From a virus: DNA of 56,312 nt. The notes beneath the pieces are model-generated. The model saw only the letters and a program-made list of their open reading frames with translations. It was not told the DNA's origin and did not search any database. The first letter of the stretch is position 1; every line of letters starts with the position of its first letter. Shown here piece after piece: positions 5,162 to 54,376 of this stretch. A program made the position numbers and the translations under genes. The stretch lies in IMG/VR virus record IMGVR_UViG_3300031539_000037, one strand, 5' to 3'.

Positions 5162-5170
5162 GGGGGGGGG
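5162..5170. repeat. G9/C9 homopolymer between the SD and the start codon
   Basis: Nine consecutive G on the plus strand, immediately 5' of the ATG of 4874-5161, in a genome with few other G/C runs. Confidence 0.85.
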
Positions 5171-8718: not shown

Positions 8719-8793
8719 TGGCGAACCGAGTAGGAATCGAACCCACGTCTACTAGTCTGGAGCTAGTCGTTCTGCCATTATTACTATCGGCTC
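8719..8793 (-). tRNA. tRNA-Trp: tRNA-Trp (anticodon CCA)
   Basis: 75 nt. Acceptor GAGCCGA/TCGGTTC, anticodon arm ACTAG-CTCCAGA-CTAGT, T arm GTGGG-TTCGATT-CCTAC, G73 and an encoded CCA. The D stem is weak. Confidence 0.7.
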
Positions 8794-8794
8794 A

Positions 8795-8869
8795 TGGGGT
8801 GACAGGAGGAATTTGCATCCTCGTCTCTACATTCACAGTGTAGGGTTCTAACTACTGAACTACTGCCAC
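8795..8869 (-). tRNA. tRNA-His: tRNA-His (anticodon GTG)
   Basis: 75 nt. Acceptor GTGGCAG/CTGTCAC, D arm GTTC..GAAC, anticodon arm CTACA-CTGTGAA-TGTAG, T arm GAGGA-TGCAAAT-TCCTC, C73 and an encoded CCA. There is no encoded G-1. Confidence 0.75.
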
Positions 8870-38587: not shown

Positions 38588-39307
38588 TCATATATATTCT
38601 AATATTCTCTTTATACATTCATCGGGGTTCTTATTTATTTCTTTTTCCCATAAATGTAAAACTTTATAGCCTTCTTCTTCTAAAAATAATGTTTGCCTTT
38701 TATCTCTTTCCTTTACTTTAGGTAAATTGTGCCAATAGTCTCCATCAACTTCTATAATTAAATTAGGTTTAATAAAAAAGTCTGCTACCCCTAATTGATA
38801 TTTAAATTGACATATAAATGATATTTTATTTTCTATTAAATAATTAGCTAATTTCTTTTCAATATTACTCGGATTATTTCGATGAGATGTTGTATAACAG
38901 CCCAAACATCTTCGGGAACAGAAATGACGTTCATACATTTTAATTTTTGCTGGTTTTTCTCTATATGTCTTTCCACAATAATCACAGGTAATATCTGATT
39001 TATTATATAATGGATGTTCCTCTCCTGTTATTCTTCTTTTGCTTTCATTTAAACATTCCTGACTGCAATATTTAGAACTTTCATATCTACTTAATATTAT
39101 AGGATATATATTTCCACAAATAATACATTCCTTAGTTAAATTTGTTTTATTCCAGGGTTTAGGCATTAAGCCTTTTGTATTCTTATTCCAAGGAATATTA
39201 CCTTTTTTTACTCCACTATTACTTAATTGAGGATAATCTTCTTTTGTTTTACCTTCACACCAAGTCTTATGACCTTTTTTAAATCTACCATCATTTATTT
39301 TTATCAT
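38588..39307 (-). CDS. Homing-endonuclease-like protein (NUMOD3-like repeats, zinc fingers, Vsr/DUF559 nuclease domain)
   Basis: 239 aa with GNIPWNK repeats and several CxxC pairs. C-terminal ADFFIKPNLIIEVDGDYWH...GYKVLHLWEKEI. Confidence 0.7.
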   Translation of the reverse strand: MIKINDGRFKKGHKTWCEGKTKEDYPQLSNSGVKKGNIPWNKNTKGLMPKPWNKTNLTKECIICGNIYPIILSRYESSKYCSQECLNESKRRITGEEHPLYNKSDITCDYCGKTYREKPAKIKMYERHFCSRRCLGCYTTSHRNNPSNIEKKLANYLIENKISFICQFKYQLGVADFFIKPNLIIEVDGDYWHNLPKVKERDKRQTLFLEEEGYKVLHLWEKEINKNPDECIKRILEYI

Positions 39308-39309
39308 TA

Positions 39310-41322
39310 TTATTTATCCAAGACAGGCAAAATTACACATCTACATTGAACGTGATTTGGAGGTGCGTCTACCCCACTACTAAAATTTTCATCTAATCCA
39401 ACAATCTCTTTATGCATAGCTGAACATTCCTCGCAAGTTCGTTCATCAAGGGCACAATACCATTCCTTTTTTTTAACTACTTCACTTTGCCTATAAGCCT
39501 CTATTGCTCCTTTATTACTTGCAGATAAAATTTCAGTTCTTGCTATCCTTGTAGCCCTGAATCCCTTGGCATCCTCGTAGACCGCCTTGACCCTGCTGGC
39601 AAGTTTGGGTATGCTTTCCCCTGATTCAATCCCTTCAATTAAAGTCTTTCTTAATAAATCTTTGGTAGTGTCGGCTATGCCTTTAATAGAATTACCGCAC
39701 CGCTTTTTAATCCATGCTACTACTTTGGGATTGGTTACATCGAAGCTACCCTCTACCCCCAACTCTATAAAACTTTCAGTGCCATTCAACCTTAATGTCT
39801 CGGTAATTCTGGGCAAGACAAATTCTATAAACTTGGCAATTTCTCTTTCATCGTGGGTGATCCGTAGTACATCGTCAACATCTTTTTCAACGATTGACTT
39901 GCCTTTCCGTAAAGCCCTTAAAGCCTCTATCTCCTGTTCCTGAAATAATTTGGTTATTCCCCTTCTAAACTCATTCTCCAAAGGGGTAACTCGCCTGATA
40001 AATGCTTTCCAGTAATTCTCTTTATATTCCTCTGTTATTTTTTTTTTATGTACTTCCCTTAAATCTTCCGTAAATTCTGCCATTTTTTCAGGTGATAGTT
40101 CTACAGTTGGTTTTTTATCACCGGATAATGGCATAACATTAAAAGGCACAAGCGGGACTTTTCCCCATTCTGCCTCATCCATTCCATCTTCAACCCTAGC
40201 CTCATTAGGTGATATTACCCAATTCTTTAAATTGCTTTCCCTTTTCTTTAATAGAAATTCCTCATCTTCGGGAATGGGATTATCAAACTCGCAATGCAGG
40301 CCATCCTCTTTATATAGCGGAATCAGGAAAGTATTGAAAATCTCGGAAATCCTAATTAATCGCGGTAAGATACATTCCCGGTTCCAGGCTGTATCAAGCG
40401 CCTGCATGTTGGCCAAGTTAGTATTCTCAGGATGGGATAGCTTTTGAGGCGGGGTATGATAGGCACTGGCCAACTGCCTCATGGTCCATTCGGCAAGCAG
40501 CATAAACTCCATGTCCTTGTTGGATATGCCGATATTCTTATATTTCAATCCACCGGTTAACACCCCGGTCTTATGTGCTTTGGCAGCACCGCCGTAAGTC
40601 TCTTCAAATAATGCCAATATCTTGTTGGCCTGATCCGGCTTTATAGTCAAATCAGATTCCAATACTCCCTTCAGATGTGCCCCATTCTTGAATACGTTCA
40701 ACTGGTAAATCATATTATACTTATCGGTATCATAAGCATAGGCTTTTCTTTGGACCGGGCTTGCGCCTCTGTATGGATCGGAAGGATTAGAATAATGAAA
40801 AAATAAAATATCTTCGCGGGGATAGATAATCTCATGCATCCCTTCCCGGTATTTATAGCTCTCAATCATTCCCTTGCTTACTTTTGGAGTCATCTTTTCG
40901 GGACTCCTGAAGTAAAATTCTCTCGGTATGCCCAGCCTGTCTTTCAGCATTAATATATAGCATTCCCCGGTCAAGTCTTGATAAATTGAAATAAATTCTT
41001 TGCCCATAAATTGGGTGGTGTCGGGATTGAAATGCTTTAATAGGTCATAGAAGGGGTGTTCCTCGATTAGCTCGTCATCTTTGTTGTAAAGCCTTAAAGG
41101 GATTGAAGCGATCCTTTCGGCAATTAATGAGATGCAGTCCCCGGTCCATCCTGAATATGCCTTAATCTGCTCTGAAGTATTGCGGTAAGTATTATCACTA
41201 TAAGAATTGGACTCACTGCCAGGCCAGTAACGAGGGTCGTTGATTCTTGAGGTTTCACTTGACTTAAATAAATTAATGTCAATATTGAATCTTCTCTTGG
41301 CAAATTGTATATCTAGTTTTAT
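39310..41322 (-). CDS. Portal protein (HK97-type) fused to a Mu F / SPP1 gp7-like head-morphogenesis domain; the start is non-canonical
   Basis: The ORF track starts at the ATG at 41007. The same frame stays open to 41334 and encodes a portal-like N-terminus (AYSGWTGDCISLIAERIASIPLRLY..HPFYDLLKHFNPDTT). The C-terminus ends PPNHVQCRCVILPV. There is no ATG/GTG/TTG upstream; an ATA at 41320-41322 lies 7 nt after AGGGGG. Confidence 0.65.
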   Translation of the reverse strand: MKLDIQFAKRRFNIDINLFKSSETSRINDPRYWPGSESNSYSDNTYRNTSEQIKAYSGWTGDCISLIAERIASIPLRLYNKDDELIEEHPFYDLLKHFNPDTTQFMGKEFISIYQDLTGECYILMLKDRLGIPREFYFRSPEKMTPKVSKGMIESYKYREGMHEIIYPREDILFFHYSNPSDPYRGASPVQRKAYAYDTDKYNMIYQLNVFKNGAHLKGVLESDLTIKPDQANKILALFEETYGGAAKAHKTGVLTGGLKYKNIGISNKDMEFMLLAEWTMRQLASAYHTPPQKLSHPENTNLANMQALDTAWNRECILPRLIRISEIFNTFLIPLYKEDGLHCEFDNPIPEDEEFLLKKRESNLKNWVISPNEARVEDGMDEAEWGKVPLVPFNVMPLSGDKKPTVELSPEKMAEFTEDLREVHKKKITEEYKENYWKAFIRRVTPLENEFRRGITKLFQEQEIEALRALRKGKSIVEKDVDDVLRITHDEREIAKFIEFVLPRITETLRLNGTESFIELGVEGSFDVTNPKVVAWIKKRCGNSIKGIADTTKDLLRKTLIEGIESGESIPKLASRVKAVYEDAKGFRATRIARTEILSASNKGAIEAYRQSEVVKKKEWYCALDERTCEECSAMHKEIVGLDENFSSGVDAPPNHVQCRCVILPVLDK

Positions 41323-42182
41323 AATATCACCCCCTTATTCATTCTCAACATATAATCTTCTTCACTATTTCCCCAATATCCCATCGTAAACATTCCATTA
41401 ATTATGTTTTCATTAGGCAATAATAATCCAGTTTTATCATAAATTCTTGACCTAATGTTAAAATATGCCCATTTCTTTCCTTCTTTGCTATGTATCCTAT
41501 CATGACATTTTTCACACAATGTTATTCCATTATTTATATCCCATAACAATTTACATTTTATAGCTGCCTGAAAATCTATTATTTCAAAATATTGTATTAT
41601 TTTAGAAAAAGATATTATATGATGAGAATTAAGATTGTGTCCTTTATTATTTCCACATATTTGGCAAGTATAATTATCTCTTTTATACACTTTTCTTCTC
41701 CACTCATCATATTTTCTATAACTTCTAATTTTAATCATTAATGGAGTTATCCCACCTTTCCAATTATGATTATTTAAACCTGCTACTTGAGGAAATTTAT
41801 TATTTTTATTCCAAGGGTTCCCCCCATTTTCGTAAAATCTTTTCTGACCCTCAAGAAATTTTTGAACATTTTTCATTACCCTAATATCATTATCTCTTCT
41901 TAAACCTTTATTCCAAGGAATATGACCTTTTCTAAACACTTGGGAATTCCTACCCATTTTTTCTAATGTTTCTTTAGAATATACTCCTATTTTCCCTTTA
42001 TTCCAGGGGATATGACCTTTATTTGTTTCAGATAAAGAACGAATGGGAATATTATATTTTTTGAGCCAATATAATATCGTTTTGGAGTTTACTCTTGATA
42101 ATTTTCCAATCTTTACTGTCGATAATTTATCTACAATATATTTTTGGTATAACCATTCTTTATTCCTATACAATTTTCCCAA
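41319..42182 (-). CDS. HNH homing endonuclease with NUMOD3-like repeats (free-standing, between terL and portal)
   Basis: 287 aa with a TTG start. Repeats KGHIPWNKG. C-terminal CQICG..HNLNSHHI...NGITLCEKCH. It is a paralogue of 53627-54376. Confidence 0.8.
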   Translation of the reverse strand: MGKLYRNKEWLYQKYIVDKLSTVKIGKLSRVNSKTILYWLKKYNIPIRSLSETNKGHIPWNKGKIGVYSKETLEKMGRNSQVFRKGHIPWNKGLRRDNDIRVMKNVQKFLEGQKRFYENGGNPWNKNNKFPQVAGLNNHNWKGGITPLMIKIRSYRKYDEWRRKVYKRDNYTCQICGNNKGHNLNSHHIISFSKIIQYFEIIDFQAAIKCKLLWDINNGITLCEKCHDRIHSKEGKKWAYFNIRSRIYDKTGLLLPNENIINGMFTMGYWGNSEEDYMLRMNKGVIL

Positions 42183-42202: not shown

Positions 42203-42252
42203 ATAAAAAAAGCCAAAAACAAAATCGGTCAAGATTTCATTCTTGGCTTTCT
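42203..42252 (-). terminator. Intrinsic terminator between terL and the HNH cassette
   Basis: Minus strand: AGCCAAGAA...TTTTTGGCT (9 bp including one G-U) with an inner AAATC/GATTT helix, followed by a T-run. Confidence 0.6.
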
Positions 42253-42403
42253 GGAAGCTCACAAATTATATATTCACATTCAGTTTATTACCTTATCACA
42301 CTTTTTATTATATGTCAAGAATTATTTTCAATTATTTTTAAACAGTGTTGCCGGTATAGCCCGCACTCTGCATTTGGCTATCTCGATATATTCCTTCTCG
42401 TTA

Positions 42404-44943: not shown

Positions 44944-45195
44944 TTACCTCCATAATACTTTTCTACAACTATTTTCCTCATTAAATACATCTAGCTTAAT
45001 TCCAAATTCTAAGCTTTCCCACATCTCGTCAGGATCAGTATATCCTAAATTATTAGCTATTTCATTTTTGCCTTGATAACTAAGTCTAACCCACCAAAGT
45101 TCTATTTCTTCTTCAAGCTTTTTTCTTTTTTCGATTTCTCCTTTTGCCCACCGACTAAAAAAGCACCAAAGGGCAACCTTATCTATGTTATTCAT
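44944..45195 (-). CDS. Hypothetical protein
   Basis: 83 aa, ATGA-coupled to the upstream Com-like ORF. Confidence 0.5.
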   Translation of the reverse strand: MNNIDKVALWCFFSRWAKGEIEKRKKLEEEIELWWVRLSYQGKNEIANNLGYTDPDEMWESLEFGIKLDVFNEENSCRKVLWR

Positions 45196-45389
45196 TCCTT
45201 TACCCTCACAATCACCCTTTCCTCTATCTCACAGGTGATAATATTATAAGTTCCGCATCTCGGACATTTAACAATAATCTCTTTGGTCTTGCCGAAAATG
45301 TCAAACCCCGGCGAACCCACAAAGAACTTTCTATTGCAGGGTTCGCCGTCTTTTCTTATTCCTTTACATCTAACCTCTACTTCGTTTAT
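45192..45389 (-). CDS. Mu Com-like zinc-ribbon protein with a non-canonical (ATA?) start
   Basis: About 65 aa: ..NEVEVRCKGIRKDGEPCNRK...VKCPRCGTYNII. The only in-frame GTG lies after the first Cys pair. An ATA at 45387-45389 lies 7 nt after AGGAAG. Confidence 0.45.
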   Translation of the reverse strand: MNEVEVRCKGIRKDGEPCNRKFFVGSPGFDIFGKTKEIIVKCPRCGTYNIITCEIEERVIVRVKE

Positions 45390-45418
45390 ATTATCACTTC
45401 CTGACTTTTAAAGTCAAA

Positions 45419-46503: not shown

Positions 46504-46854
46504 TTACTCCCTCCCTTCTATAATGATTTCCGTTCTTGGTCTTGCCTTGTCAATATGGAAATTCACCACTGGCTGGCCTATACAATCATTGCAGTCATCA
46601 GCTATAATCTTCAAATCTACAAGGGCATCAAGCCATGCGATAAGTCCACCGCCCAGATAGTTCGACACATCACGCTTTTTTCTAATGACCCTAAAGTATA
46701 TGTCAAAAGTTATTTTTGCCTTTTTGTAAGTAAATTCGTTTAGATTACATTGCTCATATATCAGCCAAGAAATAACTTCTTTATATAAGCTTCTTTTAGA
46801 CCAGTGTAATTTAATATATTCATTTTTGCTTAACGGTATTTCATCTATTATCAG
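46504..46854 (-). CDS. rusA: RusA-family Holliday junction resolvase with no canonical start
   Basis: Open frame ..LIIDEIPLSKNEYIKLHWSKR...RKKRDVSNYLGGGLIAWLDALVDLKIIADD... matches the RusA pattern. After the upstream TGA the only in-frame start candidates are CTG and two ATA codons (46846-46854). Confidence 0.6.
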   Translation of the reverse strand: MIIDEIPLSKNEYIKLHWSKRSLYKEVISWLIYEQCNLNEFTYKKAKITFDIYFRVIRKKRDVSNYLGGGLIAWLDALVDLKIIADDCNDCIGQPVVNFHIDKARPRTEIIIEGRE

Positions 46855-46984
46855 CTTCGTCGGGGTTCACCTCCTTTAATTCTTTTATAGAAATAGAAAA
46901 TATTTCTTATATTAATTTTTATGGTTTTGATATAATCATCTTCGGTAATTATAATTGTGATAAAATATTTTTGGCTATTTTTTC

Positions 46985-47482
46985 TCATTTTTCCAATTCC
47001 TTTAGATTACTATTCTTTTTAATCATACAAGTATATTCTTGCCCACACCTGTAACACTCCTTATGCATATTGCATTCATCTTTCTCCTCCTTTAGGTATT
47101 TTTGCTCTAAATCTTTCATAAACTTAATATAATAGTTTTCTCCTTTATGATACCCCCTGAATTGAAATACTCTTTTTGCCCTTTTCCACATTATTCTATA
47201 GATAATTTCTGTTTCAATAAAAGTAGTATCTTTGGTTTTTTCAGATTTAAAATAATATTTATCTGCAATTCTTTTAATTTTATTTAATATGCTTCTTCTG
47301 GTGTATTTTACATCTTCTGGTTCTTGTGGAATTTCATATTCCCTTTCTAACTCTTCCCACATCTGCTTATACGCCTCGCCCTGTTTGAGCAGGGAGATAA
47401 TATCTTTAATTGCTTCTGATTCTTGACAAGGTTCATCATATTTATATAATCTTAAAAACTCTATCGCCTCTTTAACTTTCAT
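46985..47482 (-). CDS. Hypothetical protein
   Basis: 165 aa from the ATG with GGAGG 9 nt upstream. Cys pairs near the C-terminus. Confidence 0.5.
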   Translation of the reverse strand: MKVKEAIEFLRLYKYDEPCQESEAIKDIISLLKQGEAYKQMWEELEREYEIPQEPEDVKYTRRSILNKIKRIADKYYFKSEKTKDTTFIETEIIYRIMWKRAKRVFQFRGYHKGENYYIKFMKDLEQKYLKEEKDECNMHKECYRCGQEYTCMIKKNSNLKELEK

Positions 47483-53626: not shown

Positions 53627-54376
53627 CTATCCTATCACCTCCACTAGATTCATCTGTTTTCTTTGTTTATGTATTTCTTTGTGGCAATCTTTACATAGAG
53701 TTATTCCATTATTTATATCCCAAAGTTTTTTACATTTTAATGCTTCTCCAAAATCAATAATTTCATAATATTGTAATATTTTTAAGACAGACATAATATG
53801 ATGAGCATTAAGATTATCACTATCATCATTTCCACATATTCGACAAGTAAAATTATCTCTTTTAAATATTTCCGAACGCCATGTATGGTTTTCATTACTA
53901 TTCCAAATTCTATGATTGAATTTCTCTCTACCACCTTTCCAATTAGGGTTATTAACCCCTCCACGTTTTCCTTGCATTGATTTGCTTATATTTTGTCTAT
54001 GTTCTTTCGAAAATTTAACTCCTTTTTCAAATCCTAATTGTGGACATTTTTTACCTTTATTCCACACAATATATTTTTTCTTTTTACCTTTATGAATTTT
54101 ACTTAGCTTTTTCCTTGTTTCCCCTGAAACTATCCTCCCTTTTAGAGATTGACTTATTTTCTCTTTTATATTTTCTGGAGTTGGTATTCCTTTATTCCAA
54201 GCGATTTGTCCTTTATGAGATTCACTTAAGGAACGAATAATTATATTAGATTTTTTTAACCATTTTCCTATAATTGTTTGAGATACTTCACATAATCTAG
54301 AAATTTTTTCTTGAGATAATTTCTCGTTTATATATTTATTCTTTAACCAATCTTTATCTTGATATAATTTAATCAT
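53627..54376 (-). CDS. HNH homing endonuclease with NUMOD3-like repeats
   Basis: 249 aa. The N-terminal HTH and repeats KGQIAWNKG are followed by CRICG..DNLNAHHI..NGITLCKDCH. It is a paralogue of 41319-42182. Confidence 0.8.
   Translation of the reverse strand: MIKLYQDKDWLKNKYINEKLSQEKISRLCEVSQTIIGKWLKKSNIIIRSLSESHKGQIAWNKGIPTPENIKEKISQSLKGRIVSGETRKKLSKIHKGKKKKYIVWNKGKKCPQLGFEKGVKFSKEHRQNISKSMQGKRGGVNNPNWKGGREKFNHRIWNSNENHTWRSEIFKRDNFTCRICGNDDSDNLNAHHIMSVLKILQYYEIIDFGEALKCKKLWDINNGITLCKDCHKEIHKQRKQMNLVEVIG

Follow-up and report, generated by a model that had tools for sequence, protein, structure and literature searches.

A phage portal gene that probably starts at an AUA codon behind an extended Shine-Dalgarno sequence

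Introduction

How is translation of a phage portal protein initiated when its reading frame offers no ATG, GTG or TTG anywhere near its beginning? The question is raised by a portal-MuF fusion gene on the minus strand of IMG/VR virus record IMGVR_UViG_3300031539_000037, a stretch of 56,312 nucleotides (nt) that was analysed as a whole and is called the window here. A first-pass annotation, made from the sequence alone, had proposed that this gene and two others, a Com-like and a RusA-like open reading frame (ORF), share a purine-rich Shine-Dalgarno sequence (SD), a TGATAWT spacer and an in-frame ATA used as the start codon. Comparison with relatives of the portal, described below, reveals no canonical start, coding constraint from the ATA on, and joint conservation of the SD, the spacing and the weak codon; portal translation probably starts at the ATA at 41322-41320. 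The comparison also points to an ATA start for the Com-like ORF and to an ACG start for the RusA-like gene.

The minus strand carries all genes of the window, about 88 by our count. Their start codons are ATG (70), TTG (11) and GTG (7), and only three genes have non-canonical starts, so that the effect is gene-specific; non-canonical initiation may plausibly characterize the phage-host system in general.

Results

The portal-MuF frame and its upstream context

The portal frame is open from 41334 to its stop at 39312-39310. It encodes a Phage_portal domain (PF04860; 4.5e-57; residues 63-377, with the ATA as codon 1; 194.1 bits, cut-off 39.1) and a MuF/SPP1 gp7-like Phage_Mu_F domain (PF04233; 1.6e-21, residues 557-664, 77.6 bits against a cut-off of 29.6), both of which exceed the Pfam gathering cut-off within one ORF. 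Not a single ATG, GTG or TTG occurs between the in-frame TAA at 41335-41337 and codon 105, in agreement with what had been noticed at first pass; in the ORF listing for these three codons, the ATG at 41007 comes 109 codons past the opening of the frame and 105 past the ATA. A lead of this length before the canonical start is unmatched among the confirmed minus-strand genes, the next being that of the RusA-like ORF (66 codons) and all others being at most 18 codons. With the domain starting at residue 63, initiation at 41007 would cost about 40 of its residues.

Read on the minus strand, the context of the proposed start is AAT-AAGGGGGTGAT-ATT-ATA-AAA, or at greater length GAATGAAT-AAGGGGGTGAT-ATT-ATA-AAA-CTA-GAT-ATA-CAA. 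The ATA lies 7 nt past the last G of GGGGG, exactly as the first-pass annotation had placed it. The SD pairs at 11 positions with the 16S 3' tail (GAUCACCUCCUUUCU), including one G·U pair, and the resulting duplex of -17.1 kcal/mol ranks with the few strongest among 260 SD-like sites listed for the window. In gene 16845, an ATG after GTGAGGTGATAAT holds the same position as the portal ATA after its SD. The proposed TGATAWT spacer has to be divided differently: TGAT is a 3' extension of the SD that pairs with AUCA of the 16S tail, and only the following 3-5 nt form the spacer. The 13-mer GTGATAWTATAAA was found exactly twice in the window, at the portal and Com-like sites, against 0.02 expected, and none of 100 shuffles reached two occurrences; the looser 11-mer GTGATAWTATA, with one mismatch allowed, showed no enrichment (9 matches, 6.4 expected). 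The window was also scanned for an SD followed by a near-cognate codon that opens an ORF of at least 50 codons, which gave 16 rows and 13 distinct sites, three of which (41322, 45389 and 46860) were judged, by reading the sequence, to be non-intragenic and without an adjacent canonical start.

Conservation of the start position among portal relatives

A protein search with the portal returned more than 100 homologues. For the analysis of start codons, DNA from 52 viral contigs and 48 metagenome contigs was used, which yielded about 58 distinct portal relatives with 55-81% amino acid identity. A megablast search of 50,697 phage records with the portal region gave no match and tblastn with the portal found only relatives of 21-26% identity, so that no close cultured relative or curated annotation was available for comparison. 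The codon aligned with the portal ATA was ATA in about 35 of the distinct sequences, ATT in 11, ATC in 5-7, TTG in 5, ATG in one (L117) and GTG in none. The single ATG and the TTGs fall exactly on the aligned codon and thus mark the start position. Upstream of it every relative carried AAGGGGGTGAT, GAAAGGGGTGAT or a close variant; the near-cognate codon lay 7-10 nt from the SD and 3-5 nt past GGTGAT, with the frame preserved, and the second codon was nearly always AAA. An in-frame stop was often present 1-4 codons upstream of the aligned start. In many relatives this stop was the TGA within GGTGAT itself, 1-2 codons upstream, and the first canonical codon followed 60-139 codons downstream. Twenty distinct portal loci passed a strict filter, which required that no canonical in-frame codon occur from the upstream stop to 12 codons past the start and that the same SD have no alternative canonical start.

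The codons between the ATA and the first ATG behave as coding sequence. Comparison of codons 2-105 of the window with eleven relatives gave proportions of nonsynonymous (pN) and synonymous (pS) differences of 0.12-0.32 and 0.62-0.95, respectively, the latter being saturated, and resembled the rest of the gene. Low pN together with saturated pS indicates that the region is translated. The alignment thus bears out the earlier expectation that residues encoded upstream of the ATG at 41007 are conserved (pN 0.12-0.32), and the Pfam domain from residue 63 and the purifying selection agree with its estimate of about 105 amino acids of portal N-terminus there. Saturated pS also means that the change from ATA to ATG, a single transition that would not alter the protein, had ample time to occur, yet it was almost never fixed; judged from the aligned sequences, the rarity of ATG argues that the weak portal start is selected.

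These data bear on two alternatives. Gene callers choose a canonical codon downstream, either ATG 41007 as the first one or a later one, which would give a truncated portal; the public call of this protein (P0001) has 527 amino acids instead of 670, and the truncated calls inspected among its homologues, which are many, have 520-600. Translation from such a codon is nevertheless very improbable, given that the first 40 or so residues of the portal domain would be lost, that the 105 upstream codons are conserved as protein while synonymous change is saturated, that the first canonical codon shifts from +14 to +139 among relatives, and that no SD stronger than about -9 kcal/mol lies near 41007 among the listed sites. 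The second alternative is a sequencing or assembly error, or a recent inactivation of ATG to ATA that left a pseudogene. A single G-to-A change from ATGA to ATAA would suffice and would keep the upstream stop as well. Against it stand the recurrence of this class of non-canonical codon, behind the same SD, in about 58 distinct contigs drawn from many metagenomes, the identical protein (P0001) on 7 contigs, and strong purifying selection over the whole ORF; on this comparison an error or pseudogene is effectively refuted, and we give it almost no credence.

Several points weigh against initiation at the ATA. In the window the preceding ATT (41325-41323) is also in frame, 4 nt past the G-run. 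In six relatives (L010, L014, L015, L029, L080 and L098) a canonical in-frame codon (ATG, GTG or TTG) occurs 1-3 codons further upstream, within the SD or directly next to it, and could be used instead. ATA is not clearly over-represented at the start relative to other conserved isoleucine columns; column 77, for example, has ATA in 29 of 46 sequences, so that the identity of the codon alone is not diagnostic, and the enrichment argument was dropped. The dosage rationale given in the Discussion, like decoding by the initiator tRNA and a reduced output, is a step that we infer. As to the neighbouring ATT, its use in place of the ATA or alongside it would have a precedent in the natural ATT start of E. 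coli infC, and where homologues have been called from an ATG, they begin M-x-I-K and are longer by two codons. In the window, however, the ATT directly abuts the paired GGTGAT (0 nt), which together with the 4-nt distance from the G-run is too close. Among relatives the nucleotides between GGTGAT and the start vary freely (ATT, CTT, TTT, ACC, GTTT, TCAAT, AGCAT and others), so that the ATT is not a conserved codon; in place of the ATT, relatives have CTT, TTT, ACC, AAT and others, but the codon that follows is conserved. We regard initiation at the ATT as quite unlikely, and the ATA as the start to be preferred.

Two portal homologues carry features of a different kind. P0016 (1015 amino acids) has an intein-like insertion of about 350 amino acids inside the C-terminal MuF cysteine motif (between HPQC and CRCTILP), and P0097 is annotated with PF14890 (intein splicing).

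Promoter, leader and HNH gene upstream of the portal

Of 42 relatives, 33 have a promoter of the form TTGAC[AT]-N16-18-TANNNT in the 400 nt that precede the portal; among 342 background windows, 3 contained this pattern. The promoter is near-consensus and sigma-70-type (TTGACA-N17-TAnnnT), often TG-extended, lies 52-320 nt upstream of the start and is located between terL and the portal (for example in L003, L004, L005, L007, L011, L013, L023, L027 and L044). Its position directly upstream indicates that the portal heads a transcription unit right after terL. In many relatives the interval between promoter and SD holds a conserved short hairpin (GAGAGCYYC..AGAGAGCC-like) followed by a terminator-like stem and a T-tract. 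These leader hairpins look like a promoter-proximal attenuator or an antitermination site; the conserved hairpin region upstream of the portal had no match in Rfam.

In the window an HNH endonuclease gene is inserted between the leader T-tract and the portal SD. Its frame crosses the old leader (M-N-K-G-V-I-L-stop) and takes its stop, TAA 41321-41319, from A-TAA-AA, so that the stop overlaps the portal ATA as ATAA. This overlap suggests that the ATA might be reached mainly by ribosomes finishing the HNH gene, through termination and reinitiation, and not by free 30S subunits, an idea also favoured by the RusA-like ACG, which precedes the stop of a 45-codon upstream ORF by 4-7 nt. However, relatives without an upstream ORF keep the SD-ATA arrangement with a promoter and a leader of 25-30 nt directly upstream, and the Com-like ORF does not overlap its upstream gene; the start can thus do without coupling. 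L002, the nearest relative (81% identity), has no HNH gene and carries the identical TAAGGGGGTGATATTATAAAA, which likewise argues against a need for coupling and makes the ATA start older than the HNH insertion. Reinitiation as the main route is unlikely, although HNH coupling may contribute to portal expression in this phage; entry of free 30S subunits at the SD-ATA site remains the preferred reading.

Recoding or an unusual genetic code would be another way to open the frame: a frameshift from an upstream ATG ORF, AUA read as methionine, a phage tRNA that initiates at AUA, or adenosine-to-inosine editing. Many relatives do have an ATG just before the SD in another frame (ATGAAAGGGGTGAT), and SD-like sequences can stimulate frameshifting, as in prfB and dnaX. 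Yet the upstream ATG is not conserved, being ACG in L022, L044 and L033 and absent in L002, L005 and L009, and has no SD of its own; in relatives a promoter or terminator is what stands directly upstream. ATA makes up 47% of isoleucine codons and fills invariant isoleucine columns throughout the portal, which speaks against AUA as methionine; the tRNAs of the window are only those for tryptophan and histidine, with no UAU anticodon; and the UAAA context differs from the TadA-edited UACG motif. Any such recoding is scarcely credible here.

The portal is flanked by two endonuclease genes, the HNH gene and, directly downstream, a homing-endonuclease-like gene (38588-39307, minus strand; PHROG 559/3339, DUF559). 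The terL-portal junction holds differing ORFs in other relatives, and the upstream ORF of L039 has a C-terminus that is HNH endonuclease-like by eye only; the junction may be an insertion hotspot.

The Com-like ORF

The context of the Com-like ORF is AGGAAGTGAT-AAT-ATA-AAC, and the ATA at 45387-45389 is present as the first-pass annotation had written it. The frame is open from 45407 and its first canonical start is the GTG at 45320, which would drop the first half of the zinc ribbon; both Cys pairs are present only with the ATA start. The ORF matched PHROG 6417 'translational regulator' (3.4e-6) and Pfam Zn_ribbon_Com (1.5e-4), the latter with 21.6 bits, under the curated cut-off of 22.9. Two relatives (L057 and L072) have GGAGGTGAT-AWT-ATA. 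The first (91% amino acid identity) reads GGAGGTGATAAT-ATA-AAC and runs for 58 codons without a canonical start; the second reads GGAGGTGATATT-ATA-AAA, which is the portal context but for one base of the SD core (GGAGG for GGGGG). In L074 an ATG occurs two codons further in (M-E-V-R-C), a position that fixes the region of the N-terminus. A 'GGDII' motif at the N-terminus of called homologues is the SD translated in frame. An ATA start of the Com-like ORF is thus supported by its relatives, which are fewer than those of the portal.

The RusA-like ORF

The RusA-like ORF matched PHROG 1682 (2.8e-11, residues 2-116); Pfam gave no match for it, and PF05866 was found on 2 of 70 homologues. Its frame is open from 46866 and is bounded upstream by an in-frame stop, the TGA within its SD. 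Most of the 70 homologues begin MK(L/I)(I/T)I(D/N)E(V/I)PLSKN (e.g. MKLIIDEVPLSKN), and the window reads ACG-AAG-CTG-ATA-ATA-GAT-GAA-ATA-CCG (T-K-L-I-I-D-E-I-P). Alignment of this reading to the homologues places a threonine codon, the ACG at 46860-46858, opposite their ATG. The ACG lies 9 nt past GGAGG, and GGAGG-N9-ACG is also found in L060, L061, L067 and L070. At the same position ATA occurs in L065 (GGAGG-N9-ATA) and L068 (AAGGAGA-N9-ATA).

Two other starts were considered and rejected. The bases CTGATA-ATA-GAT at 46851-46846, on which the first-pass annotation had relied, are present as quoted, but the ATA-ATA pair forms codons 4-5 and lies 18-21 nt from the SD, and it is the ACG that aligns with the homologue ATG. 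A homopolymer error, in which one added A would repair an out-of-frame ATG at 46844 (ATGAAATACC), is disfavoured since the frame is retained in relatives, with ACG upstream, and the homologues begin three codons ahead of this site. On the alignment the RusA-like gene appears to be non-AUG as well, through ACG and without the TGATAWT-ATA context. The idea of one context shared by three genes therefore stands for the Com-like ORF, which has the exact 13-mer in common with the portal, and falls for the RusA-like gene. That the starts are genuinely non-AUG and not three separate sequencing errors has strong comparative evidence for the portal and reasonable evidence for the Com-like ORF.

An exact 21-nt match, ATATTTTCTATTTCTATAAAA, is shared by the window (46883-46903, minus strand) and L002:493-513, within an AT-rich element of about 120 nt that includes a small ORF. 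The element stands upstream of the RusA-like gene in the window and upstream of the portal in L002, so that both copies precede genes with a non-canonical start. Within the window, ATATTTTCTATTTCTATAAAA with at most 3 mismatches had 2 matches against 0.04 expected, the second at 47202-47222 on the plus strand with 3 mismatches.

Called starts of the homologues

About 40% of the inspected homologue calls in the portal and RusA-like families start within the conserved domain. Other portal calls begin with 'LAFFCYIYKGGGDT-IKVDIQF' or 'MPLIWFFYFIYKGGDI-IKVDIQF', which is the SD translated in frame; 'KGGDII' and 'ERRRAK' are among the false N-termini that arise in this way. The RusA-like calls with a false N-terminus ('…ERRRAK-IKIII…', '…RRRRSK-TKLII…') are the SD GAAAGGAGG read in frame, and others are truncated to MPLSKN, VPLSKN or MHWAKR. 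Approximately 30 of the 70 RusA-like homologues have no canonical codon at the start position of the family. The affected homologues are P0126, P0132, P0133, P0135, P0140, P0141, P0156-P0159, P0168 and P0172, and the loci are L065-L070.

Other features of the window and of related contigs

The features located in the window are listed in Table 1. An Rfam scan of the whole window found two tRNAs only, and the portal upstream region had no known leader or riboswitch. A scan of contigs for a prophage or host setting gave a single 1.7-kb contig of a metagenome-assembled genome (MAG), from which neither prophage context nor host was obtained; the MAG labels of further homologues conflict (Marinimicrobia, Ignavibacteria, Actinomycetota) and were not used.

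Table 1. Positions of the portal start region, the two further candidate genes and other features in the window.
Feature	Position	Strand	Basis
Portal-MuF fusion gene, 670 codons from ATA	39310..41322	-	Pfam, pN/pS
Proposed portal start ATA, then AAA	41320..41322	-	spacing, alignment of relatives
Extended SD AAGGGGGTGAT of portal, within last codons of upstream HNH gene	41326..41336	-	
In-frame TAA, upstream closure of portal frame	41335..41337	-	sequence
First canonical in-frame start ATG, within portal domain; very probably not the true start	41005..41007	-	
HNH endonuclease gene, 287 codons, TTG start	41319..42182	-	Pfam HNH; PHROG 8446 1.2e-26
Terminator-like hairpin and T-tract, leader	42207..42252	-	equivalents ahead of SD in many relatives
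Sigma-70-like promoter TTGACA-N17-TAAGGT, TG before -10	42290..42318	-	matches promoter upstream of portal in relatives
Com-like zinc-ribbon ORF, 65 codons, candidate start ATA 45389-45387	45192..45389	-	Pfam, PHROG
SD AGGAAGTGAT of Com-like ORF	45393..45402	-	duplex -11.0 kcal/mol
RusA-like resolvase gene, proposed start ACG 46860-46858	46504..46860	-	PHROG 1682, homologue alignment
SD AAAGGAGGTGA of RusA-like gene	46867..46877	-	duplex -17.5 kcal/mol
tRNA-Trp(CCA) and tRNA-His(GTG), adjacent, phage-encoded	8719-8869	-	Rfam scan

Three further sites concern SDs and starts elsewhere. At 53628-53642 (minus strand) an ATA behind the strong SD GGAGGTGATAGG shares bases with the TAG stop of gene 54376-53627 (ATAG); the 16-codon ORF that it opens is probably coincidental or a tiny coupled ORF. 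L004:236-1150 (plus strand) has a candidate ATA start, GGAAGGGGTGAATTTTGT-ATA, opening an ORF of 299 codons without a canonical in-frame start, to which a weak, sub-threshold Radical_SAM match was obtained. At 5162-5170 (minus strand) gene 5161-4874 has a run of nine Cs in the spacer that separates its SD (TTTAGGAGGA) from its ATG; the run is prone to slippage or sequencing error and could change the distance from SD to start.

Discussion

We propose that the 11-nt extended SD would pair with the 16S 3' tail and set the portal ATA in the P site at the usual distance of 7 nt, where fMet-tRNA could read the near-cognate AUA with a third-position mismatch, giving Met-Lys-Leu-Asp-Ile-Gln. The weak codon would lower initiation to between a few percent and a few tens of percent of that at AUG. 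In the relatives a near-consensus promoter has the portal as its first gene, although a virion needs only 12 copies of the protein; these two circumstances suggest that a weak start behind a strong SD was selected as a dosage throttle, and such a start probably keeps this low-copy virion protein scarce. The portal start could be sensitive to initiation factor 3 (IF3). The same device might serve the Com-like ORF at ATA 45389, with ACG 46860 taking the place of the ATA in the RusA-like gene, and the ATAA overlap with the HNH stop may add termination-reinitiation in this phage only. RusA-type resolvases are harmful when overproduced. Com-type proteins are regulators, which would fit the same dosage rationale.

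Beyond this, the weak portal start behind a strong late promoter may act as a sensor of host initiation fidelity (IF3, the ribosome pool) or of a phage factor. A wider proposal is that this phage group uses AUA, AUU, AUC or ACG with an extended SD as a heritable 'dosage code' for a scarce portal, a toxic resolvase and a small regulator, combined with such an IF3/ribosome-pool or phage-factor sensor and with rare ACG initiation; we consider it possible but doubtful. As far as the literature was searched, the conserved ACG start of the RusA-like gene would be a rare natural case of bacterial-type ACG initiation, and nothing specific on ATA or ACG starts, whether in phage portal genes or in genes of bacteria, was found in the open-access literature.

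Standard gene callers systematically truncate or wrongly extend genes of this type, and the mis-called starts are passed on to protein families, to predicted structures and to the markers used in phage taxonomy. In evolutionary terms the portal is clean evidence that selection can favour weakness in a start codon, and it suggests that portal dosage is set at translation initiation. It would also extend to viruses the extended-SD and AUA mechanism recently demonstrated in Staphylococcus aureus, and the RusA-like family provides a natural allelic series of ACG, ATA and ATG as test material. The mechanism is already known; none of the papers searched reported it for a phage virion gene in which the weak start is kept across a clade.

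The closest parallel comes from S. aureus, in which retapamulin ribosome profiling (Ribo-Ret) located the starts of infC, ccpN and citZ at AUA and that of cvfC1 at AUU, with extended SDs reported for infC, ccpN and cvfC1 (PMC13009471); reporters of cvfC1, ccpN and citZ gave about 10-30% of the AUG output (PMC13009471, Nat Commun 2026). The portal shares with these genes an isoleucine-type start at normal spacing, a long SD with a GGTGAT-type extension, and conservation of weak codon and SD together among relatives. The S. aureus cases are cellular regulatory and metabolic genes established by Ribo-Ret and reporters, whereas here a phage virion gene and two small genes are recognized by sequence comparison; unlike them, the portal keeps its weak start across a clade of about 58 sequences, with ATG found once. 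In engineered E. coli reporters AUA, AUU and AUC gave about 1-2% of AUG output and ACG less (Hecht et al., bioRxiv 10.1101/063800), while an ACG-initiated protein carried an N-terminal Met (bioRxiv 10.1101/063800); the present cases differ in being natural conserved genes. At the AUU of E. coli infC, also referred to in PMC13009471, IF3 discriminates against the start and expression is selected to be low and adjustable. That gene is autoregulated by IF3, whereas the portal has no apparent feedback loop. The 4-nt HNH/portal overlap resembles the ATGA-type stop/start coupling of phage operons, but it is ATAA and is specific to this phage, its relatives having no upstream ORF. Finally, the portal-MuF fusions of cultured phages (Arthrobacter phages, whose proteins are annotated 'portal and MuF-like fusion protein', Geobacillus phage GBK2 and Bacillus phage Flasso) have the same Phage_portal and Phage_Mu_F architecture at 21-26% identity. 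GBK2 starts with GTG and Flasso with ATG, which makes the weak start specific to the uncultured clade.

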